This document shows, one piece after another, positions 377 to 38,696 of a DNA stretch of 64,000 nt. The stretch is from an uncultured Pseudomonadales bacterium (GTDB taxonomy: Bacteria > Patescibacteriota > Microgenomatia > UBA1400 > UBA1449), in contig CAYLQQ010000003.1 of the NCBI GenBank assembly GCA_964386355.1, positions 69,880 to 133,879 of the forward strand. Direction: 5' to 3'. How positions within the stretch are numbered: position 1 is the first letter of the stretch; each line of letters opens with the position of its first letter. Made by a program: the position numbers and the translations under genes. The notes below the pieces were generated by a model. The model did not search any database and was not told where the DNA came from. It saw only the letters and a program-made list of their open reading frames with translations.

Positions 377-1288
377 ATGGCCAGTTCAATAGTTCCCATA
401 CAGGCAAGCACTCAGGAGCATATAGATATTTTAGATATACTGGATGATATTGTGATCTCCAAGGATGGGTCTTGTTCTATGATCTTACAAGTAACAGCAA
501 TAAATTTTGATCTTCTTTCCCAAACCGAACAAGATGCCATCATCTACGCATACGCAGGATTATTAAATTCACTCACCTTCCCGATTCAAATTATGATCCG
601 CTCGGCAATCAAAGATGTTACTAACTATATTAATCTTATAAAACAACAGGAACAGAAACAAAAAAAACAGCTATTATTGGACCAGTTAAAACAATATCGA
701 AGCTTTGTTGAAACCCTCATTAAAGACAATCGCGTTCTTGATAAGCGCTTTTTTGTTGTGATTCCCTTTTCTAGTCTAGAACTGGGATTGACCCCCACGC
801 TCGCATCATCGTTTAATAAAACAAAAAAATTGCCATACCCCAAGCCATATATTTTAGAGAGGGCAAAAATGAACCTATATCCAAAACGCGACCACCTTAT
901 GAGACAGTTTGCCCGCCTAGGCCTTCAATGTCGACAACTAAATACTCAACAGCTTATTGAGTTGTTTTTTAGTATTTACAACGAAGAGTCTGTGGGTCAA
1001 CGCATAGGAACAAGCAAAGAATACAGTGCACCAATGGTCACAGCCAAACAGGTGGCCAACCCAAAATCAGTTCCCACAATACCCATCTCTCAAGCCCAGG
1101 TTTCGGCTCAAGCCCAACATGCAATACCCGTGACACAACCACGTCCAATCAGTATCGTAGCAGAAACCGCACATACCCCCTCCCCTGTAACCCCAATAAT
1201 CCAACCATCAGAACAAAACATAGCTAATCAATCTCGAGTTGTTTATCAACCAAAAGAAACATCTGGCATACCATACGCCCAAAATTAA
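377..1288 (+). CDS. Hypothetical protein, possibly T4SS-associated; no TM segment and a Q/P/T-rich C-terminus
   Basis: ORF of 303 aa immediately upstream of the VirB4-like ATPase, with a 4-nt gap. No recognisable motif. Confidence 0.3.
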   Translation: MASSIVPIQASTQEHIDILDILDDIVISKDGSCSMILQVTAINFDLLSQTEQDAIIYAYAGLLNSLTFPIQIMIRSAIKDVTNYINLIKQQEQKQKKQLLLDQLKQYRSFVETLIKDNRVLDKRFFVVIPFSSLELGLTPTLASSFNKTKKLPYPKPYILERAKMNLYPKRDHLMRQFARLGLQCRQLNTQQLIELFFSIYNEESVGQRIGTSKEYSAPMVTAKQVANPKSVPTIPISQAQVSAQAQHAIPVTQPRPISIVAETAHTPSPVTPIIQPSEQNIANQSRVVYQPKETSGIPYAQN

Positions 1289-1291
1289 CCT

Positions 1292-3145
1292 ATGTTGTTT
1301 AAACTACCAAAAAAAACCAGCTCAAAAAACCAAACCCAGAACACGGGACCTAACCCAAGGGCGGTAATTGCGCAAGGCCTTACAACTCTGGGTGATATTA
1401 TTGCACCCCCATCCATAGAGGTGGACTTCTCGCATTTAAAAATTGGCAGCCTATTATATAAAACACTATTTGTTGCCGGATATCCGCGCTTTGTAGACGC
1501 TAATTGGCTTTCCCCTCTTATTAATTTCGACTATCCATTATCAATTAGTATGTTTATTCACCCCACCGAAGGAAAGGGCGTACTCGAAGATTTGAAGAGA
1601 AAAATTGGCGAGATGGAGGCAGAGATTCAAACAGATCTCCAGTCTGGTAAAATCGCCAACATCTCCACACAAGTACAACTTGAAGATGCTCGGGCGCTAC
1701 AGGAACAGCTGGCAAAGGGAACGGAGCGGTTCTTTCAATATGGTCTATATGTTAGTTTCTCAGCTTCGAACGAAAAAGAGCTTGAAACCATCTCAAAACA
1801 GATCCAATCGACTCTGGGGGCTTTACTCATCGTTTCCAAGCCCACCACACTCCAAATGGAGGCAGGATTTAAAACAACACTCCCCCTGTGCCGAGACTAT
1901 GTCCAAATTAATAGAAACATGGATACAACCTCTCTTGCTAGCACATTTCCTTTCACCTCATCTGAGCTTACCGATAACAAGGGAATAATGTACGGCATAA
2001 ATGCACACAACGAATCCCTCATTGTTTTTGACAGATTTTCTCTTGAAAATGCTAATTCTGTGGTATTTGCTAAATCTGGAGCAGGCAAATCATATTTTGT
2101 TAAACTAGAGGCCTTACGCTCAATGTTTTTTGACACAGAAGTAATTGTTATTGATCCTGAATCTGAGTACAATAATCTGTGCCAAGTGGTTGGTGGTGAC
2201 CGAATCACCTTTTCATTTAGCTCGCCGGTTCGTATTAACCCATTTGATCTTTCCCAGGTATACGAAGAGGGAGAAAATGAGCTTGGTTTAAAAATTCTCT
2301 CACTACATTCTCTTTTTAAGATCATAATGGGGCAGCTTGACCCAATGGAAGATGCTATTTTGGACCGAGCGCTTGTATCCACCTATAAACAGAAGGGTAT
2401 CACCCCGGAACCTAGAACCCAAAAAAATCCCCCACCTCTTATAGAAGATCTTTACAAGGTATTGATTGGCATGGAAGAGGAAAAATCAGCTTCGCTTGCT
2501 GCTCGCCTGGAAAAATATGTCAAGGGATCGTTGAGGGGCATTATTGACCAACCCTCAAATATCGACCTGCAAAATCAATTTACTGTTTTTGATATAAAAG
2601 ACCTAAGCAATGAGATGCGCCCCTTGGCAATGTATGTGATTTTGGATTTTATCTGGACCAAGATAAAAAAAGATCTTAAACGGCGAATACTTATCGTTGA
2701 CGAGGCCTGGTATCTGATGCAACACCCTGATTCTGCTCTATTTTTGTATGGCATTGCAAAAAGGGCGCGCAAATACTATCTTGGCGTTACTACAATAACT
2801 CAGGATGTTGAAGATTTCTTGGGCACAGACATGGGAAAAGCCATAGTCACAAACTCATCCATCCAAATTCTCCTCAAACAATCTTCAGCAGCTATTGAGC
2901 GCCTAGGGAAGGTTTTTTATCTTTCACAGGGAGAAAAAAACCTACTATTGTCGGCGGGTGTTGGAGAGGGTTTGTTTTTTGCTGGCGCTAACCATGTTGC
3001 AATGCGCATCATTGCCTCACCCCAAGAACACAAACTCATCACATCAAACCCCGCAGAACTCCTAGCTATGAAACAGCAGGCTATGGCAGCATCACAGCAA
3101 CTTCCGGGTGGGGTTCAGTCTGTATTGAGCGAGCTTGGCTACTAA
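1292..3145 (+). CDS. VirB4/TrbE/CagE-like type IV secretion/conjugation ATPase
   Basis: Walker A VVFAKSGAGKSYF, Walker B ILIVDEAWYLM, and overall length and layout typical of VirB4-family ATPases. Confidence 0.6.
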   Translation: MLFKLPKKTSSKNQTQNTGPNPRAVIAQGLTTLGDIIAPPSIEVDFSHLKIGSLLYKTLFVAGYPRFVDANWLSPLINFDYPLSISMFIHPTEGKGVLEDLKRKIGEMEAEIQTDLQSGKIANISTQVQLEDARALQEQLAKGTERFFQYGLYVSFSASNEKELETISKQIQSTLGALLIVSKPTTLQMEAGFKTTLPLCRDYVQINRNMDTTSLASTFPFTSSELTDNKGIMYGINAHNESLIVFDRFSLENANSVVFAKSGAGKSYFVKLEALRSMFFDTEVIVIDPESEYNNLCQVVGGDRITFSFSSPVRINPFDLSQVYEEGENELGLKILSLHSLFKIIMGQLDPMEDAILDRALVSTYKQKGITPEPRTQKNPPPLIEDLYKVLIGMEEEKSASLAARLEKYVKGSLRGIIDQPSNIDLQNQFTVFDIKDLSNEMRPLAMYVILDFIWTKIKKDLKRRILIVDEAWYLMQHPDSALFLYGIAKRARKYYLGVTTITQDVEDFLGTDMGKAIVTNSSIQILLKQSSAAIERLGKVFYLSQGEKNLLLSAGVGEGLFFAGANHVAMRIIASPQEHKLITSNPAELLAMKQQAMAASQQLPGGVQSVLSELGY

Positions 3146-3157
3146 ACATTTTTGGGG

Positions 3158-4267
3158 CTATATTTTCACCGGCATAATTATGTGTAAAGATGTAGTGCTT
3201 TTATTGTCTGAAAACTGCACGGGCGCCAAAGGACCATTACAAGCCATAACAATTTCATCCCCCACGGCTGACTTAACGTACTCCATTAAATATCTATAAT
3301 TAAAGGCAACGGAAAGTGGGTCGCCTTCAACAATTGCATCAACACTTGTTTCTGCTGACCCCCCTACCCCCTCTTTTGTAAAAAATCTTATTGCCTTGTT
3401 TTGAATTTCACACTGCACAATATTGGCTGACTGCCTGGCAAACAATGACACTTGTTTTATTGCCTGGGCGAGATCCCCCTTGTCGAGACGAACAGTCACG
3501 GAGGCTCCGGTGGGTAGTATCTTTTCAAATGGTGGAAAGTCACCCTGGATAAGCCGAATGTAAAACACTCGATCAGAGCCGATGAACCATACCCGACCAC
3601 CCTTTTTATCATAAGAGATTAAAATATCAGACTCACCGCCCCAATTTCGCAACAAACTAGCCAGGGGTTTGTATGGCACCAGCAAAATATCCTCCATCCC
3701 CTTGTCAAGCCGAACAGATGATAGGCTTAGCCTATACCCATCGCTGCCCACAATTTGCATACCCAACCCTTCTCTATATCTCATCAATACTCCTGCAAGA
3801 ACCGGTCGTGACTCGTCGGTTGCGACTGCTATAGACGCCCATTTTATGGCGAAAAGAAATTCCACTACCCCAATTTTGATAGCTCCGTTCTCCCGAGGCA
3901 TTTCCATGACGGGATACTCACTTAACTCAACCGTAGACATGGTGGCTCGACTTTTGCCGCTTTGTATTAAAAGCTTCCCCCTTTCTTCAAAGTCCAACTC
4001 AATCATTCCCCCTGGTAGTGTTGAAATGTATTCAGACAATGTCTGTGGGTTAATATACAGTTCTCCTTGCCCAACGATCTCCCCCTCCATCCACACCACC
4101 ACACCAGAGACTGAGTCACATGCCTCAACCTTTAATTGCCCCTCCCCCCACATAAGTCGTAAGGAAGAAAAAACCGGGTTAGATACATTGCCCTTAACAC
4201 AGCTCAGGGCTATGTTTATTGCATGTAAAAACTTGGATTGTTCAACAGTTGCTTTTTGTTTGCTCAT
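3158..4267 (-). CDS. dnaN: DNA polymerase III beta sliding clamp
   Basis: 369 aa. Immediately downstream of dnaA on the same strand. Three-domain clamp-like sequence with an N-terminus typical of DnaN. Confidence 0.85.
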   Translation of the reverse strand: MSKQKATVEQSKFLHAINIALSCVKGNVSNPVFSSLRLMWGEGQLKVEACDSVSGVVVWMEGEIVGQGELYINPQTLSEYISTLPGGMIELDFEERGKLLIQSGKSRATMSTVELSEYPVMEMPRENGAIKIGVVEFLFAIKWASIAVATDESRPVLAGVLMRYREGLGMQIVGSDGYRLSLSSVRLDKGMEDILLVPYKPLASLLRNWGGESDILISYDKKGGRVWFIGSDRVFYIRLIQGDFPPFEKILPTGASVTVRLDKGDLAQAIKQVSLFARQSANIVQCEIQNKAIRFFTKEGVGGSAETSVDAIVEGDPLSVAFNYRYLMEYVKSAVGDEIVMACNGPLAPVQFSDNKSTTSLHIIMPVKI

Positions 4268-4492
4268 ACGTTTTCAGTTGTATCAGATATTACTATTTTT
4301 TCAATACGCTGTAGTAGTAGGTATGGTGGATATGTGGAAAGGTTGGCACATATATGATTAGTGTGGGTGTGGATTGGGTGTGGTGTTTGTTGTTGGTAAT
4401 TTGGTCGCGCTGTGTATTGTTGAGATTGTCGGGGCGAATCATGTGTTTAGTGTGCGGACAGTTTCGTTTGTTATCAACAGCTTATCCACAAA
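4268..4492. promoter_or_regulatory. Candidate oriC segment / DnaA-box cluster between dnaA and dnaN
   Basis: TTATCCACA at 4482-4490 and TTATCAACA at 4471-4479. Several inverted near-boxes (GTGGATAT, TGTGGAAA, TGTGGATTG) at 4325-4372. AT-rich stretch at 4268-4330. Confidence 0.5.
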
Positions 4493-5875
4493 CTATCCAT
4501 ACATTTCTTTGCGAAGTGTGGATATCTCCATCTGGAGCTTAGGGGAGACACTAATAATTTTTGCAACCTTTTCCACAGCATGCATAACTGTTGTATGGTC
4601 TCTGCCCCCAAACATACGGCCGATTTCCATAAACGACACACCAAGGTCGTTTTTGAGGAGATACATTGCGTATTGGCGGGGAGTGACAATAGGCTTGGAT
4701 CTTCTGGGGCCAATAAGAGCCTGGGTTGGTATATCATAGTATTTTGACACTACCCTTACAACCTCCTTGGGGTTTATGTACGTTTTTGGTTTTGAAAGAC
4801 CATCTGTCGCTTCCTTTTTTAACATTTTTAATATCATTGGTCTTGATATGGGTTCTTTTGTAAATGTGCTTGTGGCAGAAAGTTTTGTTAAAAACCCCTG
4901 AAGCATCCGAGTTGAGGTTATTTCTGAGGCTATTTCCTGTGCCAGGTCCATGGGTAGGTTTATATCCATTTGTTTTGATTTGATAAGTAAAATAGCCGTT
5001 CTTAGTTCAAAATTTGGTTGTTGAATATCAATAATAAGTCCTTCCTCAAACCGCGAACGCAACCTGTCTTCTAAAAGTTGTATTTCCGAGGGTGGTCGGT
5101 CAGAGGTGAGAATGATTTGTCCCCCACTGGATTGTATGGCATTAAACGTATGAAAAAACTCTTCCTGAACTGTATTTTTCCCGGCGATAAACTGAATATC
5201 ATCAATAAGCAATCCGTCTACATGGCGATATTTGTTTCTAAACTGGGGAGTTCGCTTGTTTCGAATTGCCTCAATGATTTCGTTTGTAAAATGTTCTCCG
5301 GGACAGTAAATGAGCTTAAATTCTGGGTTGCGCTCTAGAATCCGTATCCCTATTGCCTGCATAAGGTGGGTTTTGCCAACACCCACATCGCCATATAAAA
5401 ATAATGGGTTATATGACGTCCCTGGATTTTTGGCTACAGCTGTAGCGGCTGCATACGCAACTTCATTGGTTGGAGAAACGGCAAAATTCTCAAAGGTGTG
5501 AGTGGTACGCAAGCCCGATCTTCGGATTGAGTTTTCTACGAGAGATTCTTGTTTTTGTTGATTAACAAATTCTTGCGTTTCTTGGCTAAAAAGATCTGGA
5601 ATTGTAGTTTTTGCTTGCTGGCTTGCGATCTGAAACGACACACTTACGGATTCTCGTAGAAGATTGCTAATGGTGGTGGTGACAAGCTCTAGGTGGTTTT
5701 TTGTCAAATAATCCTGAACAAAAATATTTGGACAGGATATAATGATTGTTGTATCGGCGTCTGTTTTTTTTATTTCCTGGATGTGGGTTTTTGCAAAATA
5801 CAAATTGAAATGGGAAAACGATATGTTTGGCTTTAGCTGTTCGAGTGTATTTGTCCAGAGGTTTTCTGTATTCAT
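4493..5875 (-). CDS. dnaA: Chromosomal replication initiator DnaA
   Basis: Walker A GDVGVGKTHL. C-terminal DnaA DNA-binding helix-turn-helix ...TPRQYAMYLLKNDLGVSFMEIGRMFGGRDHTTVMHA. Confidence 0.9.
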   Translation of the reverse strand: MNTENLWTNTLEQLKPNISFSHFNLYFAKTHIQEIKKTDADTTIIISCPNIFVQDYLTKNHLELVTTTISNLLRESVSVSFQIASQQAKTTIPDLFSQETQEFVNQQKQESLVENSIRRSGLRTTHTFENFAVSPTNEVAYAAATAVAKNPGTSYNPLFLYGDVGVGKTHLMQAIGIRILERNPEFKLIYCPGEHFTNEIIEAIRNKRTPQFRNKYRHVDGLLIDDIQFIAGKNTVQEEFFHTFNAIQSSGGQIILTSDRPPSEIQLLEDRLRSRFEEGLIIDIQQPNFELRTAILLIKSKQMDINLPMDLAQEIASEITSTRMLQGFLTKLSATSTFTKEPISRPMILKMLKKEATDGLSKPKTYINPKEVVRVVSKYYDIPTQALIGPRRSKPIVTPRQYAMYLLKNDLGVSFMEIGRMFGGRDHTTVMHAVEKVAKIISVSPKLQMEISTLRKEMYG

Positions 5876-9855: not shown

Positions 9856-12800
9856 ATGCCCAAAAAATTTTCAACAGAATCAAATAATGGAGTTTACTGC
9901 GTAATAGTGGGAAGTGGCGATTTTTTGGGATGTGAGCTTGCACGTCAAATGCTGAGTCAGGGTTGTAGAGTTGTGATTGTGGATGATACCTCTGGAAAAA
10001 CTAATAATAACCTACAACAACTGAAAGAAAATTCAAATTTATCAGTTTTATCCACATCAAATAAAGATTTAGAGATTTTGTTTTCAACTAAACCTGACTA
10101 CATATTTTACCTAGAATTGATTGATTTATATGAACACAGAGATCCTAAGTATATATATCAGGAAACGTATCGCAAATTGGGATTTGAGCGGTACATGAGT
10201 TGGTGTCAAAAAGCTGAAGCAAAACTTCTATTGGGGTGTATTGAATCATTGTATGAAGAAAACGCTTCCTTAGTTAAAGGAAAAGATGTTGGAGATAAAA
10301 CAGAGAGATATTGGGAAATTCAGGAAAAATTTGAATCCCTTGTTTTTGCCTACAGCAAAGCACACGCATTGGATGTGCGTATAGTTCGCATCACGGAGCC
10401 TAGTGGAGCTGGAATGTCCATCGCTTCCAGCAATCCAATTACTAAGTGCTATATTTCAGCCGTGAAACAGGGATGTGTTGAGGTTGTTGGAGATGGAAAT
10501 CAGCTACTATATCCAACCCACATTAGTGACATAGCCTTTGGCATGATAAAGGCTATGTTTTCGCAGAGTTCAAACGGGAAAATGTATGCTCTGGTCAATA
10601 AGGAGGGTTTGTCTTTATTTAATCTCGTAAAATTTATTGAGCAAGCCCTGGGAAAGTCTATACGCATAGTTAACACATTCGAAAAAGAAATTACAGAAAA
10701 ACAAGGATTAACTCAGGCAATGTTGCTTAGTCAGGAAGTGCTTGGATGGTTTCCGCGCTGTAATATTAATACAATCCTACAAAATACGTTTGAGTGGTTA
10801 GGTAAGTCTGTGTCTGTAGACCATCAATATCAACAACCCACCACCCAGACAGTAGCTGAAACTCTCTCTATAAATAATTTACCAATAAAACACAAAGCAT
10901 CTCAAGCAACTGAGGATGGTTATGACTCTAAAAACAGTGACTCTTTTGATAGGATAAATGTTCATAGATTACAAGATGAAGAAGGGAAATTTGATAATCC
11001 CAAGAAATCCCAACCAAACACTGAGCTGCTTATAAACAAAAATTCTAAAAACAAGTTACCTGTGTTTACTATACAGCCGCCAGTACAGATAACCTCACCG
11101 TTTAGTAATGTAATAGGGAGATTGCCTGGCTTTACGGGAATTGCTCATACATCAACCAGGTATGTAATATTTGGCTTTGTGATGATTTTGTTGCTATTTA
11201 TTCTTCCGCAACTACTATTTATAACTGGTTCAAAAATTGCCCGTAATCACAATATTGCAATAACAAACTCACTATTGAAGTCAACCAGCATTAAACCTGA
11301 CTATTGGACAGATTCCATGCTGGTAATGACTGCAGGAAAAATACTGCCATGGGTAGAGTGGCAGCATGCACTGTTTGGTGTTGATACCACACAACAAGCT
11401 GAAGCGTTGTTGGTATACAAAGATCTGCTCGGAGTAGTTTCTGATGCAAATCAGCTTTTTTTACACACTGAGAAGGTTGTGGATGCGATATTTGGACGGG
11501 ATTCAGTAAATATGGTCAATACATTAGATCAGGCAAAACAGAACACGCTGTCATTGTCAGAAAAACTAGCATTTTTAGAAGCTCGCTATAAAAAAAACGA
11601 ATTACAGGACATGTTAGGAAGTGATATTGGGTTACTGAGAGAGTGGAATGTAAATTGGGGTGAAAGCTTAGTTTTGTTGAGCACCAGCATGCTTAGTGAG
11701 CAGCGCAAGATAATTGCTATAGCCATTCAGGACAGTCTTGAACTACGACCAACGGGGGGATATATGGATTCGATCATGTTTTTAACAATCGAGAAGGGTA
11801 AGCTATTGGATGTGCAGGTAAAAAGCGTTGATGAATTGGATGCGTCGTTACAAGGTGTTGTGCAGCCTCCTGATGATATTGCGCCAGTAATTAATGGCCG
11901 CTTAGGAGAGAAACAGTGGTGGCTTCGTGATGCTAATATGTATGCAAATTTTTATGGAAAAAGTGCTCCGCGAATTGCCTGGTTTATTGAAAAAGAGACG
12001 GGGATCAAAGTTAGTGCTGTGATTGCGGTTGACTCTTATTATTTTAAAGATATTTTACATTTGCTTGGCGGAGTATTTATTCCAGAGCTAAATGAAACCA
12101 TTACAGCCGACAATACACTGGAGCGATTATTCAGCCATGCCACATCAGCCATTGGAAGTAATGGAAACAAGCAGACAAGTTTTTTGCAACTGCTTAGTAT
12201 TAGGCTTGTTGAAAAAATAAAATCTATGCCATCTGATCAGGTGATAGGAATACTTCCGGTAATATCTGAACAGGCAAGAAAAAGACATATTATGGTATAT
12301 GATGAATCTTTTATTGATGATGGTCACCAGCTATGGAAAGGAGAAGTGCCAAAAACTATGTCGCAGGTGGTTGAGTTTGGCGATTTGCATATGCCTGGTT
12401 TTATAATGCCCATTGAAGCTAATGTGGGTATTAATAAAAGCAATTATCATATACAAAGAAACCTTGCTGCTAATGTCAAATTGGGAAATACAGGCTCTTC
12501 AGATATACAAGTAAAATATGAATTAAACAATATGAGCCAGACAGAAATGTGGCCATCAGGGAGCTATAAATCCATGGTTTGGTTATATCTTTCTCAAAAT
12601 GCAAACATAAAGAAAGTGGGCGTTACAAATGATAATTTTGAGTACATAGAACTTAAATCAACTGAAATAGAAATAGTTGAAGAGGGTGATAAAAAACGCG
12701 TTGGTTTTTATATTGAGGTACCTCCATTGTCAAAACGTACCATACAGATTGAATATGGCATGGAGGGATCTCAAAAAGATATAAAAAACGTTTCAATGTT

Positions 12801-12972
12801 TATTGCTAAACAATCGGGTGTCGGTGTTATGCCCGTACAGTTAGTGATTGAGTATCCCCCTTTATGGAGACCGGAAAAAATTACACACCAGACAGAGACT
12901 GGCAGTGGATCTTTGAAGCTAGTTAAAGATATTGAAACAGATTTGTTCTTTGCCGTTTCATTTTCTCGATAA
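9856..12972 (+). CDS. Fusion protein: N-terminal NAD(P)-binding epimerase/dehydratase-like Rossmann domain, one TM segment, and a large extracytoplasmic domain containing an LRPTGGYMDS motif (possibly DUF4012-like)
   Basis: VIVGSGDFLGCELARQMLSQGCRVVIVDD matches a GxxGxxG Rossmann fold. A hydrophobic segment follows (YVIFGFVMILLLFILPQLLFI), then about 580 aa of soluble domain. The DUF4012 assignment is from memory of the family motif. Confidence 0.45.
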   Translation: MPKKFSTESNNGVYCVIVGSGDFLGCELARQMLSQGCRVVIVDDTSGKTNNNLQQLKENSNLSVLSTSNKDLEILFSTKPDYIFYLELIDLYEHRDPKYIYQETYRKLGFERYMSWCQKAEAKLLLGCIESLYEENASLVKGKDVGDKTERYWEIQEKFESLVFAYSKAHALDVRIVRITEPSGAGMSIASSNPITKCYISAVKQGCVEVVGDGNQLLYPTHISDIAFGMIKAMFSQSSNGKMYALVNKEGLSLFNLVKFIEQALGKSIRIVNTFEKEITEKQGLTQAMLLSQEVLGWFPRCNINTILQNTFEWLGKSVSVDHQYQQPTTQTVAETLSINNLPIKHKASQATEDGYDSKNSDSFDRINVHRLQDEEGKFDNPKKSQPNTELLINKNSKNKLPVFTIQPPVQITSPFSNVIGRLPGFTGIAHTSTRYVIFGFVMILLLFILPQLLFITGSKIARNHNIAITNSLLKSTSIKPDYWTDSMLVMTAGKILPWVEWQHALFGVDTTQQAEALLVYKDLLGVVSDANQLFLHTEKVVDAIFGRDSVNMVNTLDQAKQNTLSLSEKLAFLEARYKKNELQDMLGSDIGLLREWNVNWGESLVLLSTSMLSEQRKIIAIAIQDSLELRPTGGYMDSIMFLTIEKGKLLDVQVKSVDELDASLQGVVQPPDDIAPVINGRLGEKQWWLRDANMYANFYGKSAPRIAWFIEKETGIKVSAVIAVDSYYFKDILHLLGGVFIPELNETITADNTLERLFSHATSAIGSNGNKQTSFLQLLSIRLVEKIKSMPSDQVIGILPVISEQARKRHIMVYDESFIDDGHQLWKGEVPKTMSQVVEFGDLHMPGFIMPIEANVGINKSNYHIQRNLAANVKLGNTGSSDIQVKYELNNMSQTEMWPSGSYKSMVWLYLSQNANIKKVGVTNDNFEYIELKSTEIEIVEEGDKKRVGFYIEVPPLSKRTIQIEYGMEGSQKDIKNVSMFIAKQSGVGVMPVQLVIEYPPLWRPEKITHQTETGSGSLKLVKDIETDLFFAVSFSR

Positions 12973-14882: not shown

Positions 14883-15599
14883 CTATTTACTGTTCCCACC
14901 AAATCTTCTATCCCTTGAAGAAAAATCTCGTAAAATTTCATCAAATTCTTTGATACTAAAATCTGGCATAAGCGTTTTTGTAAAATACAATTCGCTGTAC
15001 TGACACTGCCATGGTAAATAGCCCGAAAGACGGACATCCCCGCCAGTTCTGATAATAATATCAGGGTCAGGCATGTCATACGTATCAAGATATTGGCCAA
15101 AATCACGCTCTGTTAACTGGTTAACCATATCGGGATTAAATTTAGGAGATTGGATCATTTTTTTCATAGCCCTGATTATTTCATCCCTTCCGCCATAGTT
15201 TATGGCAATTGTAACCGTTAGCCGATGTTTGTCGTGAGATCTGTTTTTTAAATTGATTAATTTATTTTGAAGATTGACTGGTAGTTTTGAAATATCACCA
15301 ATGGTATTGAACTTAACCCCAGCTTCTTCATATTTCTGGGTATTTTTATCCAGAGCATAGCCGAGCAAATTAAACAGTTTGTTGACAAACTCCGCCCCCC
15401 GCCTCCAGTTTTCAGTCGAGAATGCCCAAAAAGTAATGTATGGAATACCCAACTCAAGGCTGTGGCAGACTATATTATCAAGGGTTGTATCAACGACGCG
15501 CCTATGTCCTGCAATGCTGGGGAGGTGGTGTTGTTTTGCCCATCGACGGTTGCCATCGACGATAAAGGCGACATGTTTTGGTAGTTGGGAATTCTCCAT
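14883..15599 (-). CDS. uppS: Undecaprenyl diphosphate synthase (cis-isoprenyl transferase)
   Basis: HVAFIVDGNRRWA, ITFWAFSTENWRR and RTGGDVRLSGYLPWQ are hallmark UPPS motifs. Confidence 0.9.
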   Translation of the reverse strand: MENSQLPKHVAFIVDGNRRWAKQHHLPSIAGHRRVVDTTLDNIVCHSLELGIPYITFWAFSTENWRRGAEFVNKLFNLLGYALDKNTQKYEEAGVKFNTIGDISKLPVNLQNKLINLKNRSHDKHRLTVTIAINYGGRDEIIRAMKKMIQSPKFNPDMVNQLTERDFGQYLDTYDMPDPDIIIRTGGDVRLSGYLPWQCQYSELYFTKTLMPDFSIKEFDEILRDFSSRDRRFGGNSK

Positions 15600-15733: not shown

Positions 15734-16120
15734 TCACGGGTTTGATAGTTTTACAGCACCAAAACCCAGGTTGATACCAAAAATAAGTTCCAATAGCTGC
15801 ATAATCCAGTAAGCTAGAAAAATAATGACAAAACCTACTATAGTAGAGGTCATCATAGACTTACCCTTTTGCATCTTGTCCTTGTTTCCAACTGCAGTAA
15901 GTAGGGTAAAACCTGCAGATACAAACAGTACGAATAAAACGATGCCCGCAAAAGCAAAAATGTAGGGAGTAAAAGCTGTGATCATCTGTCCGATTGTTTG
16001 ATTGCTGTTAAACAGGCCTGCGCCAACCTTTGGCAGATCAGCTGGAGCATTATTACCGATAGGATCCGGCACTGGTTTGCCTGGGATTCCCGGTAGTGAA
16101 AAAGCAAGTATATCAGCCAT
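15734..16120 (-). CDS. Small VirB2/TrbC-like pilin-fold membrane protein (TM-hairpin)
   Basis: Two C-terminal TM helices separated by a short charged loop (GNKDKMQKGKSMM). Paralogous to the C-terminus of the adjacent gene. Confidence 0.4.
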   Translation of the reverse strand: MADILAFSLPGIPGKPVPDPIGNNAPADLPKVGAGLFNSNQTIGQMITAFTPYIFAFAGIVLFVLFVSAGFTLLTAVGNKDKMQKGKSMMTSTIVGFVIIFLAYWIMQLLELIFGINLGFGAVKLSNP

Positions 16121-16126
16121 ATGTTT

Positions 16127-17254
16127 TTATCTGCTAAATCCTGGAATTTGTAATATGTCTGTCCCTATGAGTTGGAGTAAAAACACAGAGAATATGATAA
16201 ATACCAAACCAGCTCCTGCGGAAACAAACATCTCTTTACCATTTTTAAGCTTTTCGGGATCACCCGCAGATGTCATGAGTTGAAATGAAGCAAACGCCAT
16301 AAGTAAAAAGGCAATACCACCGCCAAGGCCTATTCCCCATCGAAGCACCCAGCCTATCAATGGAATGGGTTCGTAGGGGATACAACCAAGCGCAGTTTTT
16401 ACACCAGGTTGTGTGGAATCATTATTATAAAAACATGTGTCAGGCTTTATTTTTACCGGAGGACCTTCTGTTGTATTTGTATCCTCAACAGTATCATCTT
16501 CAGGATTACAGACCTCAAGCTTGGTAAATCCGCTTTCGCAGACAATAGAGTCATTATTTTCTAATACTAATTTATGTTGAGTTAGGGAAAGCGAACTGAT
16601 ATCAATTTGTGCGGGAGGGCTTATCGATCCGTTTGATATGTTTACTTTTGTAGCAAAAGCTCTATTATCTATGCGAATAACAAATGGATTGAAAAAACTT
16701 GAATCAACTGGTTGACCCCCCTCTGTAACATTATTGCTAATAACTGTAATATTTTTTGTAGTTAAATCAAAACATGTTTTTGTACCGGCTGCGTTTGTAT
16801 CTGGAGTAATGGTAAGGCTTTCACAGGAGGGATTGACCTGGCCTCGCTTAATCGTATAAAAAGAATGACAAAGTTGTGTGCTACCATCACCGGTATATAC
16901 CCACACTATTCGTTGCCCACTTCTATACCCAAACTCACCAAAAAAGAGTTGTATAGCTCTACTATCAGTGATTGTGACGGGAATGTTATTTTGAACATTC
17001 TGTTCGTAGCGGTTTAGTACGCAGCCATTAATAACGGGATCGCAATTAATTAATACTTTATAAGTTGGCTGTCTTCCGCTGACGGTAAGTTTCATGTTTG
17101 GGGTTACTCGACTATATATTGGATCTGGTTCAACCTGTACTTGGATGTTTGCATCGGCGCATAAAGGGGAGGCATGTATGCGCGAGAGGCTTTCTGTCAA
17201 CAATAAAGTGATGAAGACCAAAGAAATAATAATTCTAACACCTCTTTTAAGCAT
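16127..17254 (-). CDS. Secreted Cys-rich ectodomain protein with a C-terminal VirB2/TrbC-like pilin-fold TM-hairpin; many NxS/T sequons
   Basis: Signal peptide. About 290-aa ectodomain with at least 12 Cys and NITV/NVTE/NISN/NGSI/NDST/NTTE sequons. C-terminal TM-loop(AGDPEKLKNGKEMF)-TM matches the downstream 128-aa protein. Confidence 0.4.
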   Translation of the reverse strand: MLKRGVRIIISLVFITLLLTESLSRIHASPLCADANIQVQVEPDPIYSRVTPNMKLTVSGRQPTYKVLINCDPVINGCVLNRYEQNVQNNIPVTITDSRAIQLFFGEFGYRSGQRIVWVYTGDGSTQLCHSFYTIKRGQVNPSCESLTITPDTNAAGTKTCFDLTTKNITVISNNVTEGGQPVDSSFFNPFVIRIDNRAFATKVNISNGSISPPAQIDISSLSLTQHKLVLENNDSIVCESGFTKLEVCNPEDDTVEDTNTTEGPPVKIKPDTCFYNNDSTQPGVKTALGCIPYEPIPLIGWVLRWGIGLGGGIAFLLMAFASFQLMTSAGDPEKLKNGKEMFVSAGAGLVFIIFSVFLLQLIGTDILQIPGFSR

Positions 17255-31149: not shown

Positions 31150-31237
31150 GGAGGAGTCGCCTAGTGGTTCATGGCGCACGCCTGGAAAGCGTGTATGCTT
31201 CGTGCATTCGCGAGTTCGAATCTCGCCTCCTCCGCCA
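31150..31237 (+). tRNA. tRNA-Ser (anticodon GGA), class II, with CCA encoded
   Basis: GGAGGAG-TC-GCC-TAGTGGTTCAT-GGC-GCACGC-CTGGAAA-GCGTG-(long variable arm)-GCGAG-TTCGAAT-CTCGC-CTCCTCC-G-CCA. Confidence 0.85.
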
Positions 31238-32716
31238 TTCTAAAATATCAGTATTTTTTGGTAAGTCTTTGAGGTAGTCGTAAGGCTTTTTGTATTGTAC
31301 CTTCTGTATTTTCCCATCAGCTATCTCACAGTTCCAAAGTAAGAAATCAAGCAGTTCTTTCTTAACCTGTTTGTTTCCCTTTTTAAACTCAGAATGCAGG
31401 CTAATACAACGTTTTTTAATCTTTTCCAAAAGTTCCAAAGTTTTAGTGGGGTTGGGTGGTGTGTACTTGCTCAGAGCAATCTCGAGGTTGGTTTTCTCCT
31501 CCATTAAGGCTTTCCGTTTCTCCTGGTAGGTCTGTTCATCGAGGCTGTTCTCTAGAAGTAGGTCGAGTAGCCGGTTCAGCTTCTTCTGAATACCGGAGAG
31601 CTCCTGCTGCATCAGCTTGGCTCCATTGAGCTTGTCCTGTTCCCGAACCATTCTATCCTCCATATAGAGCTTGAGTGATAGCGAGGCTAAGTCACCTGGT
31701 AAGGAGGACTGCTTCATCAGACTTTGCAGCAAATCCTGTACCCCCGGCTCATCAAGGTAATCCCGATGCTGGGAACACACCCCTTTTCCGTTAGTGCAGT
31801 AGTAATACACATAGCGCCCTTTTTTAAGGCTAGCGGTTAGCTTGCATCCACACACAGCACATGATAGATACCCACGGTAGAGGAAGTTGTGAGTTTGTTT
31901 CTTGCTTCGGTTAGTCCCATTTAAAACAGTTTGAACTCTATCCCAAAGAGTTTTACTGACTGCTGGTTTGTGTTTACCTTTGTAAAGGATATCGTTTCTT
32001 AGAATTGCTCCATAATAGAATGGGTTTCTCAGACACTTGTGTAAAACCGACTTATGGACTTTTTTATTGCCTAATCTGGTACGTAATCCATCTTTGTACA
32101 GGATAGAAGCAACCTGTTTAAGAGAGTATTCACCTGTTGAGAATAATCTAAACAGCTTTTGAATGTACGTAAATCGCAGAGGATCAGGCACGATCTCTTT
32201 AGTTTCTTTATCGTTTAGGTAACCGATGTATGCCATACCCGGATAGCCGCCTTTTAGAAGTTTGGTTTCATTCCCATGCTTAACCTTGACTGAAAGTTCC
32301 CGGGAATAGTTTGAGGCAAACAGGAAATCAAATCCCATATAGAGTAAATCTTGAACTGATGAATAGATACGGTTAGGAGTTCTGATCTCTTTAAGTTTCC
32401 CTTGTTCGATGAGCTTGGCTATCTTTCCGGCCTCAATCCAGTTTCGACTTAACCTATCCAGGTGAACAGCCAGAATAGCATTGACCTCGCCTGATTCAAT
32501 ACGCTTAAGCATAGATGAGAATTGTGGGCGGTTGTTGTCATCTTTGGCACTGCGAGCTTCCTTAAGGACATCAATCACATTGAGGCCATCTCTGTCAGCT
32601 TGCTCAAGGTTAAGACGTTGCTGGGTTTCCAGTGATTGGATTTGCTTGGTATTTTCATCAGAGGACTTACGACAATAAGCTATATAGCGAAGAGAAGAAT
32701 TATTCATCATGAGCAT
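31169..32716 (-). CDS. Large serine recombinase (resolvase catalytic domain + recombinase domain + zinc ribbon + coiled-coil); its C-terminal codons overlap tRNA-Ser(GGA)
   Basis: RYIAYCRKSSDENTKQIQSLETQ (catalytic Ser), LDRLSRN, and CAVCGCKL...CTNGKGVC zinc ribbon. The start is probably at the MLMM Met cluster (32707-32716); the listed ORF begins at 32776. Confidence 0.75.
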   Translation of the reverse strand: MLMMNNSSLRYIAYCRKSSDENTKQIQSLETQQRLNLEQADRDGLNVIDVLKEARSAKDDNNRPQFSSMLKRIESGEVNAILAVHLDRLSRNWIEAGKIAKLIEQGKLKEIRTPNRIYSSVQDLLYMGFDFLFASNYSRELSVKVKHGNETKLLKGGYPGMAYIGYLNDKETKEIVPDPLRFTYIQKLFRLFSTGEYSLKQVASILYKDGLRTRLGNKKVHKSVLHKCLRNPFYYGAILRNDILYKGKHKPAVSKTLWDRVQTVLNGTNRSKKQTHNFLYRGYLSCAVCGCKLTASLKKGRYVYYYCTNGKGVCSQHRDYLDEPGVQDLLQSLMKQSSLPGDLASLSLKLYMEDRMVREQDKLNGAKLMQQELSGIQKKLNRLLDLLLENSLDEQTYQEKRKALMEEKTNLEIALSKYTPPNPTKTLELLEKIKKRCISLHSEFKKGNKQVKKELLDFLLWNCEIADGKIQKVQYKKPYDYLKDLPKNTDILEWRRRRDSNSRMHEAYTLSRRAP

Positions 32717-33641
32717 CACTCTTTCCGGCAGGCGGATTGTGGTAGCCATTATACTCAAAAAAATATACTTGACCATTCCTCTTACTTACAAACTTGCTAT
32801 TAAACGTAGATTCAATACCATGAGCACCCAACTCATCAAGAATATACTCAGCCTCATCAGAATAATATATTTTAGGTCTATCCAGATTACGGGAAGTAGC
32901 ATAACTACGATGTCCAACAAGTCTTTTGTCTAGAGCATTTTTAATCATGTACTTAGCCAAGTATTGTCCAACATGATCCAAGGTATACACTCGTTCAATT
33001 TTAATAAATCCGAATCCCCAGTATTGCGCAATGGTTTCTTTATCGAGAAAGGGAAAGTCTACCACAAGGTGATAGTGAACTGCTCCTCGTTTTTGAAACT
33101 CAACTACCCAGACATACTTAAACTTCCCATACTGTTTACGCATAGCTTTTAGGAAAGCTCCCATCTTGTCATGACAGACCTCAACATTGGTAATATCAAA
33201 ACTGTTGTGATCATTTAGAGTAAGCGTGAGAAACTTGGTGTGTGGATTGTCTCCAAAATTACCCTGCACAAGGCGTATTAGGTTGTTTGTAGCTCTGACT
33301 GCTGTACGTTTTCGGTACTCTTTACTCCTCTTTGTTTTTCGCTTAAATGGATCTTCAAAGGGTTTTCGCTTCTTAATCTCTTTAATTCGTATCGTTAAGG
33401 GAAACTCATATCGATAGTATTGGATTAAATTATTAATCTTAATTATTTTAATATTTGTCTGTTTGTAGGTGGGAGAGGTATCAAATTTTTCCTGTGCTTT
33501 ATATATGAGTTTTAGTGCTTCATTCCGTTTTGTGACGTTACTATCAAGTAGAGAAGGTGGGAACTGCCTGGGAGCAGTGGTATCCCGACTACCGTCGGGA
33601 TACAAGTGGCGCTCTAATAGTTTTTCTTTAGCCTTATTCAT
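32700..33641 (-). CDS. Rolling-circle replication initiator (HUH endonuclease Rep)
   Basis: Motif I FLTLTL, motif II AVHYHLVV (HUH), and motif III YLAKYMIKN (Y..K). Confidence 0.7.
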   Translation of the reverse strand: MNKAKEKLLERHLYPDGSRDTTAPRQFPPSLLDSNVTKRNEALKLIYKAQEKFDTSPTYKQTNIKIIKINNLIQYYRYEFPLTIRIKEIKKRKPFEDPFKRKTKRSKEYRKRTAVRATNNLIRLVQGNFGDNPHTKFLTLTLNDHNSFDITNVEVCHDKMGAFLKAMRKQYGKFKYVWVVEFQKRGAVHYHLVVDFPFLDKETIAQYWGFGFIKIERVYTLDHVGQYLAKYMIKNALDKRLVGHRSYATSRNLDRPKIYYSDEAEYILDELGAHGIESTFNSKFVSKRNGQVYFFEYNGYHNPPAGKSDAHDE

Positions 33642-33887
33642 ACACCTCCGTTTCCGGTGTATGGTTTAGGTACAAGGCTTTGCCTAAGTGAATGAGGGAT
33701 AACCTAATCTCAAGAAGATCATCGGAAGGTATAGTGATACCGAACGTATTTTGGAAGTATTCCTGTATTTGCTGGTACTGGGTTTCTTCAAGGGACTTGA
33801 CTTGCTTCATATAGCCAGACTAGGCTACGAAGCACAATTACATCAGGGATAAAGCGGGGGATATTTTACGGGGTATATTGTGGGAGA

Positions 33888-34628
33888 TTATGAAATATCA
33901 ATCAATTTATACCCCTCGGAACGGATGGCTACTATACTGTCCATGACCTTAGTTACATCATCTTTTCCAACGCCTGATTCCTTTAACCTTCTGCCAAACC
34001 TCTTTTTAATATCACGAATCAGATCTTGTGCTTGGCTTACATCTAAACCCTTTGTGGATACATTTAAGTTAAGGTAGCTAACAAAATCAATGTAGTTGAT
34101 TACTTTGCCTTTATGTTGAAACAAGTGCATAAAAAATCTAAATTCTCGATTATTAACGTTGATAGTTTTTGATTGGTTGCCTGTATACTGAAATGTAGCT
34201 CTGGTTAAATTGATGGTGATTGGGCCGTGAACATACAATAAATCATCCACACCTCTTATATTAGGTTTTACCAAATGTAATGTGTTATCTTTTTGAGCAG
34301 TTAACTCAGCTAGATCTCTGTCAATTTCCCTAAACGTATGTTCTAGATCATAGGGAAGCGGATAGATATGAGGAATAGTAGAAGCCAAATACTGTAAGTC
34401 CTCTTCAAACGTCTGCTTTGTGGAGTTCCAGTCTTTGATGTGTTCATCAGCTTTGTTAAATAACGAGGGGAAGCTTTTTAATCCCATGATTGGTAATTGA
34501 CGAAACTCAGGACGAATATCAATCACGGTAAATGGCTGTATTATCTGCTGGTATAGATCATCTAATAAATGAGAGGGAAAAATATACTGGTGAGATTGTT
34601 CTGAATATTCACTGTACACACAATCCAA
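33888..34628 (-). CDS. Hypothetical protein with a C-terminal OmpR/PhoB-like winged-helix DNA-binding domain
   Basis: C-terminus ...IRDIKKRFGRR...VMDSIVAIRSEGYKLI resembles trans_reg_C. Confidence 0.35.
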   Translation of the reverse strand: MDCVYSEYSEQSHQYIFPSHLLDDLYQQIIQPFTVIDIRPEFRQLPIMGLKSFPSLFNKADEHIKDWNSTKQTFEEDLQYLASTIPHIYPLPYDLEHTFREIDRDLAELTAQKDNTLHLVKPNIRGVDDLLYVHGPITINLTRATFQYTGNQSKTINVNNREFRFFMHLFQHKGKVINYIDFVSYLNLNVSTKGLDVSQAQDLIRDIKKRFGRRLKESGVGKDDVTKVMDSIVAIRSEGYKLIDIS

Positions 34629-34894
34629 AATCTCGAAAGCCTTTTGATAGAGGACATAATGGTAATACCTGACAGCTTTAAGGTAAAAGGTTTTAGTAGC
34701 TGGGGTTTTGCAATGACGGGGGTATACTCAAGCGGTAATTCATCCCATTCTGAGCTGTTCTTATCAAAGAGACTTAGAAATGTTTCAATAGCTGGAGCAA
34801 AGAAGTTGAGAACCTTATCTTGAAATAATGTTTTAATGTCATCAGTTAGCTTATTCATAAAAAATGTTCGTAATATTGACCAGTAGTATATCAC
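34562..34894 (-). CDS. Hypothetical protein
   Basis: ORF of 110 aa within the element. Confidence 0.25.
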   Translation of the reverse strand: MIYYWSILRTFFMNKLTDDIKTLFQDKVLNFFAPAIETFLSLFDKNSSEWDELPLEYTPVIAKPQLLKPFTLKLSGITIMSSIKRLSRFWIVCTVNIQNNLTSIFFPLIY

Positions 34895-34900
34895 CTCATA

Positions 34901-34928
34901 AAAAGCCTCCGGTTTAGGAGGCTTTTAT
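34901..34928. terminator. Bidirectional rho-independent terminator
   Basis: AAAA-GCCTCC-ggttta-GGAGGC-TTTTAT. Confidence 0.5.
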
Positions 34929-34947
34929 ATTAATCTTTTAAAAAATA

Positions 34948-35616
34948 TTATATTTCTGAACCAATATCTTTATACTCATTAACCGGAGTTGGGACCGGAC
35001 TACTATCTGGTTTTTCTGCAGTACTAGCTCTATGTTCATTAAAGGCTTTATCAATAACAACGCAAGCATCTTTATACGGTAAAGAGGCATAAGAATATTC
35101 AGGTTTAAATCCAATACCTTGACCATAATTACCCACTCTTACTTCGTAAGTAATTCCACCGGGCAAAGAAATATCTACCTGAGGTTCTCTTCCTATACTA
35201 TTACTATTTGGACGGTAGTACTCTGCATCAGCCTGTTGTTTTGCTGCCTGAGCCTTTAATTGAAAGTTGTCTTCACCCCCAACTAACGCATATATTTGTT
35301 CTTTTGTCAAAGAATTCACTCCAAAAGTATATTTCATTTTATTAGGATCGCGCGGGATATGAGCTCTATTATCTCTCTTTTCAAAATCCTCCCACTTACT
35401 CTCATCATCAAAAACTGCGCCTACAGCACAAGGTTGCAGACTTAAAGCATAGTCAGCACCACTTCCTGATTGAATGGCATTTTCTAATGCAGAACCAGAC
35501 CAATTTGTTAATAGTTCCTTCCACATTGCAGTCATATTATTAATGAGCCGATCTGCAGTCTCTTTTTTTGTTTCCTCAATAGTCCCTAACTGTTCTGTCG
35601 TTGTAGTTTCAGTCAT
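34948..35616 (-). CDS. Hypothetical protein (element cargo; possible structural protein)
   Basis: ORF of 222 aa; no motif recognised. Confidence 0.35.
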   Translation of the reverse strand: MTETTTTEQLGTIEETKKETADRLINNMTAMWKELLTNWSGSALENAIQSGSGADYALSLQPCAVGAVFDDESKWEDFEKRDNRAHIPRDPNKMKYTFGVNSLTKEQIYALVGGEDNFQLKAQAAKQQADAEYYRPNSNSIGREPQVDISLPGGITYEVRVGNYGQGIGFKPEYSYASLPYKDACVVIDKAFNEHRASTAEKPDSSPVPTPVNEYKDIGSEI

Positions 35617-35881
35617 ATTTCTCCTTAATATTATTAATATTTATTGAGGTAATATTAACATCGCTAGATCTTTTAAATCAAGGTCTAGAAAATAATTTAA
35701 AATTACTTTTTTCCTCTATAAAAGTTCCAACATCGTCCCATCTCCTCCGCCAGGCGAGACAGAATAGTCTTTATGATTACTCTAGTAATCAATTTAAACA
35801 CTCTGTCTTTGTCAGGGGATTTGTTACAATCATTGGGTACAAAGTTAGAATGTATTGAATTAATAGTAAATAACTAGAGTT

Positions 35882-36352
35882 CTAACAATCACCCCTACCT
35901 ATAAGCACTAATGCTTGATCGATTTCCTGTGCTGCAATCCAAGGTTTGAAATTCTTCGGAATATGAAGAAAGGTGTATCGGGATTTAAGTTGTTTTTGGT
36001 TAATAAGCTTCATAATTTCCCAACTGGTTTGATTACAATAAGAATTACCAATTGCTGTGGCATACTTCATACCAAGAGTTGGTTGCAAAAATGGCTGTAT
36101 TTCTGTGGTTATTAAGTGGTCACTTTCTATCAAATTATTCCTAAACTGATTAGTGCATATTGTTTCAATGCGAATTTTTTCCTGATCAACACCAGAATAT
36201 GAACCTAACCCTACAATATATTCCGGCTGGTCATGCAATAGCATATTTAGATAATGATCAAGGTTATTAGGGAAAACCAGATAACAGCAACTCAGTTGCT
36301 TAAGTCTATATAAAATATGGCCAGTACCACCTAAAGCAAATCCATAAATCAT
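35882..36352 (-). CDS. Pyroglutamyl-peptidase I-like (peptidase C15), compact form
   Basis: DQPEYIVGLGSYSG, IGNSYCNQT (Cys nucleophile region) and TFLHIPKN (His) align with the Pcp active-site blocks. Confidence 0.45.
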   Translation of the reverse strand: MIYGFALGGTGHILYRLKQLSCCYLVFPNNLDHYLNMLLHDQPEYIVGLGSYSGVDQEKIRIETICTNQFRNNLIESDHLITTEIQPFLQPTLGMKYATAIGNSYCNQTSWEIMKLINQKQLKSRYTFLHIPKNFKPWIAAQEIDQALVLIGRGDC

Positions 36353-36357
36353 AAAGT

Positions 36358-38586: not shown

Positions 38587-38607
38587 TATTATACCCTATC
38601 ATATAGA

Positions 38608-38665
38608 AGTTTCCTTGACAGAAGGAAACTTATAGTGCATACTTTCCTTTGTACAAGGAAACTTT
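38608..38665. promoter_or_regulatory. Two adjacent operator-like sites in the divergent promoter between the PrimPol-helicase and the AAA ATPase: a perfect inverted repeat, then a TTGTACAA-centred imperfect palindrome; both carry AAGGAAACTT
   Basis: AGTTTCCTT-gacag-AAGGAAACT (38608-38630) and TTTCCTTTGTACAAGGAAACTT (38643-38664). Confidence 0.45.
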
Positions 38666-38696
38666 GTTAATAAATTTCCTAGTACTTAGCTTACCT

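Follow-up and report, generated by a model that had tools for sequence, protein, structure and literature searches.

Tandem VirB2-like pilins, one bearing a hypervariable cysteine-rich ectodomain, in the replication-origin region of an uncultured Microgenomatia bacterium

The window analysed here, a stretch of 64,000 nucleotides from contig CAYLQQ010000003.1, carries two adjacent minus-strand genes whose products end in similar membrane hairpins, one of them preceded by a large, presumably extracellular, Cys-rich domain. An earlier note on this DNA, made from the sequence alone, had read the two proteins as tandem VirB2/TrbC-like pilin-fold proteins with the topology of pilins of a type IV secretion system (T4SS), and the locus raises the question of whether they are such pilins and what a pilin would do with a domain of this kind. 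It is probable, on balance, that the pair, hereafter P1 and P2, represents positions 1 and 2 of the VirB2-like pilin set of a chromosomal, origin-proximal T4SS of Patescibacteria, and that the set forms a heteromeric surface or pilus-like structure with P1 as its exposed binding subunit.

P1 (16127-17254, minus strand) is a protein of 375 residues, referred to here as a 'position-1' VirB2-like pilin, in which a signal peptide, a variable Cys-rich ectodomain and a conserved pilin hairpin follow one another, as indicated by its open reading frame (ORF), the Pfam family PF18895, a position-1 hidden Markov model (HMM) and 52 homologues of like architecture. P2 (15734-16120, minus strand), a 128-residue 'position-2' VirB2-like pilin, has no Cys and no hydrophobic signal peptide and begins with a Pro/Gly-rich tail of 42 residues bearing an L-x-LPG motif, as judged from PF18895, a position-2 HMM and an alignment of 14 homologues. 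Both ORFs lie on the strand and at the positions given by the earlier note, with a gap of 6 nt between them, and the loop peptides quoted there, AGDPEKLKNGKEM and GNKDKMQKGKSMM, are found in the two proteins. The transmembrane-charged loop-transmembrane arrangement claimed for both C-termini is borne out by Kyte-Doolittle hydropathy, which shows two hydrophobic segments with a short charged loop between them, and the hairpins of P1 and P2 are homologous (BLASTP, 33% identity over 54 residues, E-value 2e-8). The window has no further ORF of this kind: searched against its 612 six-frame ORFs, a profile of the family C-terminus retrieved the two genes with E-values of 4e-43 and 3e-12 and the next best ORF at 0.75, and a second profile built from 354 small pilins likewise picked only P1 and P2. 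A scan for promoters and terminators around the pair gave counts at chance level and is uninformative.

The N-terminus of P1 (residues 1-28; 17171-17254, minus strand) is a predicted Sec signal peptide, MLKRGVR-IIISLVFITLLL-TESLSRIHA/SP, in which basic residues precede the hydrophobic stretch and the IHA/SP site; a signal peptide had been seen in the earlier note, and the prediction draws on hydropathy, on a helix at residues 3-22 in the AlphaFold2 (AF2) model and on the homologues, all 52 of which have a comparable hydrophobic N-terminus, the cleavage site being read from the sequence. Residues 29-273 (16436-17170, minus strand) make up the variable ectodomain, characterised by AF2, Foldseek and homologue identity, which holds 8 of the 10 Cys residues and all 7 N-x-S/T sequons. 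AF2 models residues 30-139 confidently as a beta-sandwich, with a predicted local distance difference test score (pLDDT) of about 90, and residues 273-293 as a small beta-hairpin bracketed by C274 and C291. At this place lies a conserved Cys-bracketed motif, C274...GVKTALGC291IP (residues 274-295; 16370-16435, minus strand), which by conservation and AF2 stands just outside the first helix. The two-helix membrane hairpin follows (residues 296-367; 16154-16369, minus strand; helices modelled confidently by AF2 at 296-328 and 333-367), with the loop SAGDPEKLKNGKEM and then a conserved C-terminal DILQIPGF tail, as seen from hydropathy, conservation and AF2. A large ectodomain is thus present, its size being about 245-265 residues and not the roughly 290 estimated earlier; P1 has 10 and not at least 12 cysteines, and seven sequons and not six. 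A special meaning of the sequons is not supported, as they show no significant excess over composition (7 observed, shuffle mean 3.8, p ~0.065).

In P2, a disordered 42-residue tail, which is non-hydrophobic, is followed in the AF2 model by helices at residues 43-75 and 80-114 (pLDDT 76-85), and the two-helix hairpin (residues 43-114; 15779-15994, minus strand), recognised from AF2 and hydropathy, encloses the loop GNKDKMQKGKS. As the loop is net positive (+3), the positive-inside rule would place it in the cytoplasm and both termini outside. One of the 14 aligned P2 homologues is named 'pilin' by NCBI. Position-2 pilins (15734-16120 and P0054-P0066) have in common an N-terminal motif, M-x(2-8)-L-A-(Q)-x-L-x-L-P-G, with L9 and P10 invariant, which could be a processing or recognition site; in P0056 (201 aa), one of the position-2 homologues, a signal peptide and a Cys-rich insert have been acquired instead.

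The earlier note had proposed a comparison with pilin-family profiles and would have taken the lack of such a match, with a generic anchor such as a holin matched instead, as refutation. The outcome favoured its reading: PF18895 (T4SS_pilin) was found to be the top family for both proteins and no holin family was matched in Pfam or PHROGs. P2 scores 30.2 bits (E-value 4.8e-7) and P1 26.6 bits over residues 307-363 (E-value 6.4e-6), exactly at the curated gathering cut-off of the family (26.6 bits), and PF18895 is also listed in the precomputed annotation of identical database proteins. The two helices with a short polar or charged loop that characterise this family are seen in P1 and P2 by both hydropathy and AF2. 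Of the 80 orthologous array members compared, which come from 10 genomes, 78 match PF18895, and so do all eight positions of the array in a complete Woesebacteria genome. The VirB2/TrbC-like reading is supported by way of PF18895, the TrbC/VirB2 family itself being matched by 7 of the 80 array members (best E-value 2e-6) and, below the cut-off, by a minimal position-1 pilin (E-value 6e-4). As judged from profile similarity, both proteins are members of the T4SS_pilin family. Pilins of type IV pili were also considered and rejected, as no class III signal peptide (G/FTLxE) is present on direct reading and the hydrophobic hairpin is C-terminal.

The place of the pair within the family was examined in a comparison set of 80 related genomic loci, in 39 of which exactly eight pilin genes occur; 23 loci have only two within 6 kb, as in the window. 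Position-specific HMMs trained on 20 genomes assigned the held-out proteins to the correct position in 152 of 152 cases, and hairpins are 54% identical at the same position across genomes as against 28% at different positions within one genome. P1 is best matched by the position-1 HMM (149.6 bits, the other positions scoring 37 or less) and P2 by the position-2 HMM (88.6 bits). At the level of these sequence models, the pair is shown to consist of orthologues of positions 1 and 2 in a fixed array of eight paralogues. With a gap of 6 nt, P1 and P2 also form a tandem array in the sense of at least two T4SS_pilin genes adjacent or one gene apart. Position 1 alone is Cys-rich, with a median of 8 Cys against 0 elsewhere in the array. 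The family is represented by 4,581 cluster representatives (50% identity) at E-values up to 1e-30 and by 26,217 at E-values up to 1e-3.

Two observations concern the distal part of the array. In several loci (L014, L038, L041, L046, L013) the array is split after position 2 by uppS or by a few kb of other genes, with positions 3-8 following, and in the window (uppS region, 14883-15599) and a Beckwithbacteria locus (L005) uppS is followed by hyp327, L25 and a DUF4012 protein; the distal array has therefore seemingly been relocated or lost in the window lineage. Directly after the eighth pilin gene, 27 of the 80 loci (L016:8790-11264, L008:8815-12009 and 25 others) encode a secreted Cys-rich protein of 700-1060 residues with weak lysozyme-like matches (SLT_3 PF18896, E-value 1e-3; SLT_4, E-value 0.07), a candidate VirB1-like component.

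The variation of the array centres on the position-1 ectodomain. Position-1 proteins range across the loci from about 120 residues, with essentially no insert, to 482 residues. The shortest form is a classical prepilin consisting of a signal peptide, a C-x-TAIGCIP motif and the hairpin, from which it follows that the ectodomain is a variable-sized insertion separating the signal peptide from the Cys-bracketed motif. Minimal position-1 pilins of about 120 residues retain exactly two Cys, those of the motif; C274, G290 and C291 are invariant or nearly so in 52 sequences, and a TA[IL]GC[IV]P-like motif is present in 131 of 168 family members. Among the 52 homologues the ectodomain is 16.4% identical, against 16.3% for shuffled sequence, and the hairpin module 50.5%. 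The P1 hairpin module is 41-77% identical to those of 15 directly compared homologues, and where hairpins are equally similar (74-77%) the ectodomain is either recognisably related (33%) or unrelated and of another length. Relative to the closest genome, identity is 48-86% for the flanking genes and 73% for the P1 hairpin but 14% for the ectodomain, which there is 115 residues shorter. The insert is thus shown to change far faster than the hairpin and the neighbouring genes, apparently by replacement of the domain or by very rapid divergence. Used as a lone query, the P1 ectodomain retrieves itself only, and it is covered by no Pfam, NCBIfam or PHROG family. The number of Cys residues is even in 48 of the 52 P1 homologues and in 152 of the 168 family members, which fits disulfides; MdbA/VKOR disulfide machinery is enriched in genomes of the Candidate Phyla Radiation (bioRxiv 10.1101/335083).

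Regarding the organism, the genome belongs to the Patescibacteria, class Microgenomatia, which bears out the inferred ultra-small, symbiont-type bacterium. All homologues are patescibacterial, and the named ones belong to the Microgenomatia (Woese-, Gottesman-, Shapiro-, Beckwith-, Davies- and Levybacteria). Many 'binchicken' metagenome-assembled genome records with clearly patescibacterial loci (L004, L008, L010 and others) are titled 'uncultured Gammaproteobacteria' or 'Pseudomonadales', which are apparently placeholders or mislabels.

The window covers a replication-origin region with dnaA, dnaN, rnpA, yidC and jag (dnaN and dnaA at 3158-5875), which is adjoined by a PrgI/TrsD/VirB4 core. 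The VirB4-type T4SS ATPase noticed earlier at the left edge (1292-3145, plus strand; 617 aa) was confirmed by matches to PF19044 P-loop_TraG (E-value 9e-29) and PF12846 AAA_10 (E-value 9e-11) and by gene order. It is preceded by a TrsD/TraC-like protein of 303 residues (377-1288, plus strand), related to the N-terminal part of VirB4 and identified by a precomputed PF26593 TraC-like match, and just left of the window by a PrgI/VirB3-like gene (PF12666, 27.6 bits against a cut-off of 27). The PrgI/VirB3-like protein (L001:7969-9078) is unusually long, its 369 residues comprising two N-terminal transmembrane helices, a long Pro/Gln-rich linker and a C-terminal CarboxypepD_reg-like beta domain (E-value 6e-4). 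The remainder of a T4SS, for which the earlier note had suggested a search, did not emerge: Pfam scans of about 47 further ORFs of the window gave no VirB6, VirB8, VirD4, VirB1 or relaxase.

Comparison with described systems places the locus close to the T4SS arrays of Patescibacteria. A survey of the phylum counted 441 arrays of 2-11 VirB2-like genes, with the Microgenomatia and Saccharimonadia richest in them (Quinonero-Coronel et al. 2025, PMC12102498); the PrgI/TrsD/VirB4 trio, its order and its proximity to dnaA have been described for the phylum, with TrsD as the commonest T4SS component (PMC12102498). Epibiotic growth of Southlakia epibionticum requires both the T4SS and a six-pilin PF18895 array, SEML1_0014-0019 (Wang et al. 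2023, PMC10633639). Since arrays near dnaA were published in 2023-2025, this kind of feature is already known. The pair in the window resembles these arrays in being of the PF18895 family, tandem, chromosomal and close to dnaA and a PrgI-TrsD-VirB4 core in the same order, which is that of the essential SEML1_0010/0009/0008 of S. epibionticum, and in that no relaxase or coupling protein is seen nearby in the window. In contrast to S. epibionticum, the window has just two pilin genes, which are separated from virB4 by other genes, and P1 carries a presumably disulfide-rich ectodomain of about 245 residues, whereas the S. epibionticum pilins are about 125-185 residues long. In the literature that could be searched, neither the ectodomain fusion nor the fixed eight-position organisation was found described, and the hypervariable ectodomain-fused position-1 pilin appears not to have been described before.

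Likeness to the TrbC/VirB2/TraA pilins (PF04956; F, RP4 and T-pilus) extends to small size, two hydrophobic helices, a short basic loop, a VirB4 in the genome and, at position 1, a precursor with a predicted signal peptide. The differences are a monoderm organism, the absence of a cleavable signal peptide from P2, the failure of the window proteins to match PF04956 and the large N-terminal domain on P1, which is not known from classical VirB2; unlike diderm T4SSs, no VirB5, VirB7, VirB9 or VirB10 was found. Weak similarity over the hairpin was seen to two NCBIfam families, the pilin-like conjugal transfer family Mbov_0395 of mycoplasma integrative and conjugative elements, matched by both proteins, and pLS20_p028 (NF045849, NF045890; E-values 2e-5 to 6e-3). 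These are likewise membrane proteins of monoderm conjugation systems, and pLS20_p028 is also long (a 377-position profile) with a pilin-like hairpin; however, the scores are far under the cut-offs (24 against 40 bits and 15.6 against 150 bits) and those families belong to relaxase-bearing mobile elements. As to adhesins of the VirB5 pilus-tip or PrgB type, the likeness lies in the proposed role only, that of an exposed, variable, target-binding T4SS module: no sequence or fold similarity exists, and the presumed binding domain forms one protein with a pilin hairpin instead of standing on its own. No adhesin, including a PrgB-like one, has been detected for the T4SS of Patescibacteria (PMC12102498).

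If the pair functions as favoured here, P1 would be exported by Sec and its signal peptide cleaved, and its ectodomain would fold outside the cell with five disulfides. The P1 hairpin would span the membrane with its charged loop in the cytoplasm, and P2 would insert in the same orientation. The VirB4 machine, presumed to be the motor of the same system as the pilins, would pull them from the membrane into a heteromeric surface or pilus-like structure; with the pilins extracted by VirB4 for assembly, as in VirB2-type systems, the N-terminal domain would then face outward. P1 would be a minority subunit whose exposed N-terminal domain binds a lineage-specific ligand, probably on the host-cell surface. 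That only one of the eight subunits bears an ectodomain suggests that it is a minor or tip-like component, a functional counterpart of VirB5 or PrgB, and it is plausible that the P1 ectodomain acts as an adhesin. A further proposal, that the eight fixed VirB2-like paralogues build a T4SS-dependent heteromeric filament in which the position-1 pilin-adhesin fusion, with its swapped or diversified disulfide-rich domain, determines host specificity, is put forward tentatively, as a possibility that we regard with some doubt.

Several observations weigh against an assembled surface structure with P1 as its binding subunit. The pilins lie 12.6 kb and 11-12 genes away from virB4, among housekeeping genes. 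Positions 3-8 were not found with two pilin profiles in the window and 8.7 kb further left, so that the complement of eight is lacking there, and the same stretch holds no homologue of the lysozyme-like secreted protein of full arrays; the pilin set may be incomplete or differently organised. P1 and P2 themselves gave no match to TrbC/VirB2 (PF04956) at E-values up to 1, and no relative of the hairpin among solved structures was recovered, an HMM search of PDB sequences giving none and Foldseek only non-significant matches, although such searches are uninformative for so simple a fold. Half of the ectodomain, residues 140-262 of P1, is poorly modelled by AF2 (pLDDT below 50), and the beta-sandwich has only weak, generic fibronectin type III (FN3)/Ig-like matches in PDB by Foldseek (best E-value 2.4e-3, template modelling score 0.56 on the target). 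The hypervariability of the ectodomain could reflect weak constraint and not selection. None of these Patescibacteria systems has been observed to make a pilus, and eight fixed paralogues could equally form a complex that stays in the membrane.

The last point leads to the strongest alternative, in which the proteins are genuine T4SS_pilin proteins that form no pilus: the eight paralogues would be a membrane ring or channel of a monoderm T4SS or an envelope complex, and the P1 ectodomain would serve the wall or S-layer of the cell itself, for instance as an anchor or spacer. A set of eight subunits that diverged long ago and are orthologous by position suits a complex of fixed stoichiometry better than a homopolymer, and Gram-positive T4SSs are normally without pili (PMC12102498, PMC12857230); moreover, the array is divergent to a gene for a SpoIID-domain cell-wall protein in 70 of the 80 loci and followed by the lysozyme-like protein in 27, which points to action at the wall. 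However, the hypervariability and replacement of the P1 ectodomain would be unexpected if this domain bound the conserved envelope of the cell itself, and the family is related to true pilus subunits, as seen from the TrbC matches. This alternative is judged unlikely, though by no means negligible.

Tandem pilins could also be interchangeable variants that serve antigenic or host-range variation, by a proposed analogy with the VirB2 paralogues of Bartonella and Anaplasma, the window holding two of them. Variation of this type has been raised for arrays whose members average 25% identity (PMC12102498), and the P1 ectodomains do differ between lineages. The members are nevertheless not recent duplicates, since position subfamilies are orthologous and occur in the same order across the Microgenomatia, and variation, far from being spread across the paralogues, falls mainly on a single domain at a single position. 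Because of the positional orthology (152/152; 54% against 28%), the explanation is disfavoured and must be considered improbable. That the shared hairpin is a generic two-transmembrane anchor, holin-like or similar and unrelated to secretion, is highly improbable and largely refuted, for although helical hairpins are simple, Foldseek found no significant pilin match and weak sub-threshold Pfam matches to assorted membrane families occur, PF18895 is the top match of P1 and P2 and is shared by nearly all array members (78/80), no holin was matched, no phage context is present and the essential array in the T4SS cluster of S. epibionticum consists of members of this family. A holin or other phage membrane protein was rejected on the same grounds, the best PHROG match being to a function-unknown family (E-value 7e-4) and the neighbours being uppS and a SpoIID-domain gene.

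Other genes of the window were recorded alongside. A conserved block divergent from P1 (17451-22569, plus strand) encodes a coiled-coil SpoIID-domain protein of 594 residues, a bPH_2 membrane protein of 225 residues, an unannotated single-transmembrane protein of 596 residues and SmpB, whose genes occur next to the position-1 pilin in 70, 68, 60 and 48 of the 80 loci, respectively. The SpoIID-type enzyme could replace the function of VirB1, which is reported to be mostly missing (PMC12102498), or the pattern could be backbone synteny. A fusion of an NAD-dependent epimerase/dehydratase with DUF4012 (1038 aa; 9856-12972, plus strand) is kept beside L25 in the Beckwithbacteria locus L005. A mobile-element-like island (31169-39986) holds genes for a large serine recombinase (31169-32776), a Rep ORF2/G2P-type replication protein (32700-33641), an AEP-TOTE primase fused to a ResIII/DEAD helicase (36358-38586) and an AAA_14/DUF4143 ATPase (38649-39986), with several unannotated small ORFs.

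Epibiotic growth requires the T4SS in the one species of Patescibacteria tested, and the function of this system has been described as completely unknown (PMC11665869, PMC12857230). A pilin that combines a hypervariable exposed domain with a conserved hairpin is an obvious candidate for the target-recognition component so far missing from this system. The pair in the window is one ordinary member of the family, and its function is here inferred from sequence. The finding of fixed orthologous subunits, as opposed to interchangeable copies, favours studies of co-assembly over those of antigenic variation. If the proposed role holds, P1 would represent the first binding domain fused to a VirB2-type pilin, and the reading of position 1 as a pilin-adhesin of a filament would, if true, provide a molecular handle on the host to which each uncultured Patescibacterium attaches. 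As the family is large, typing of the ectodomain could therefore become a metagenomic marker of host range.

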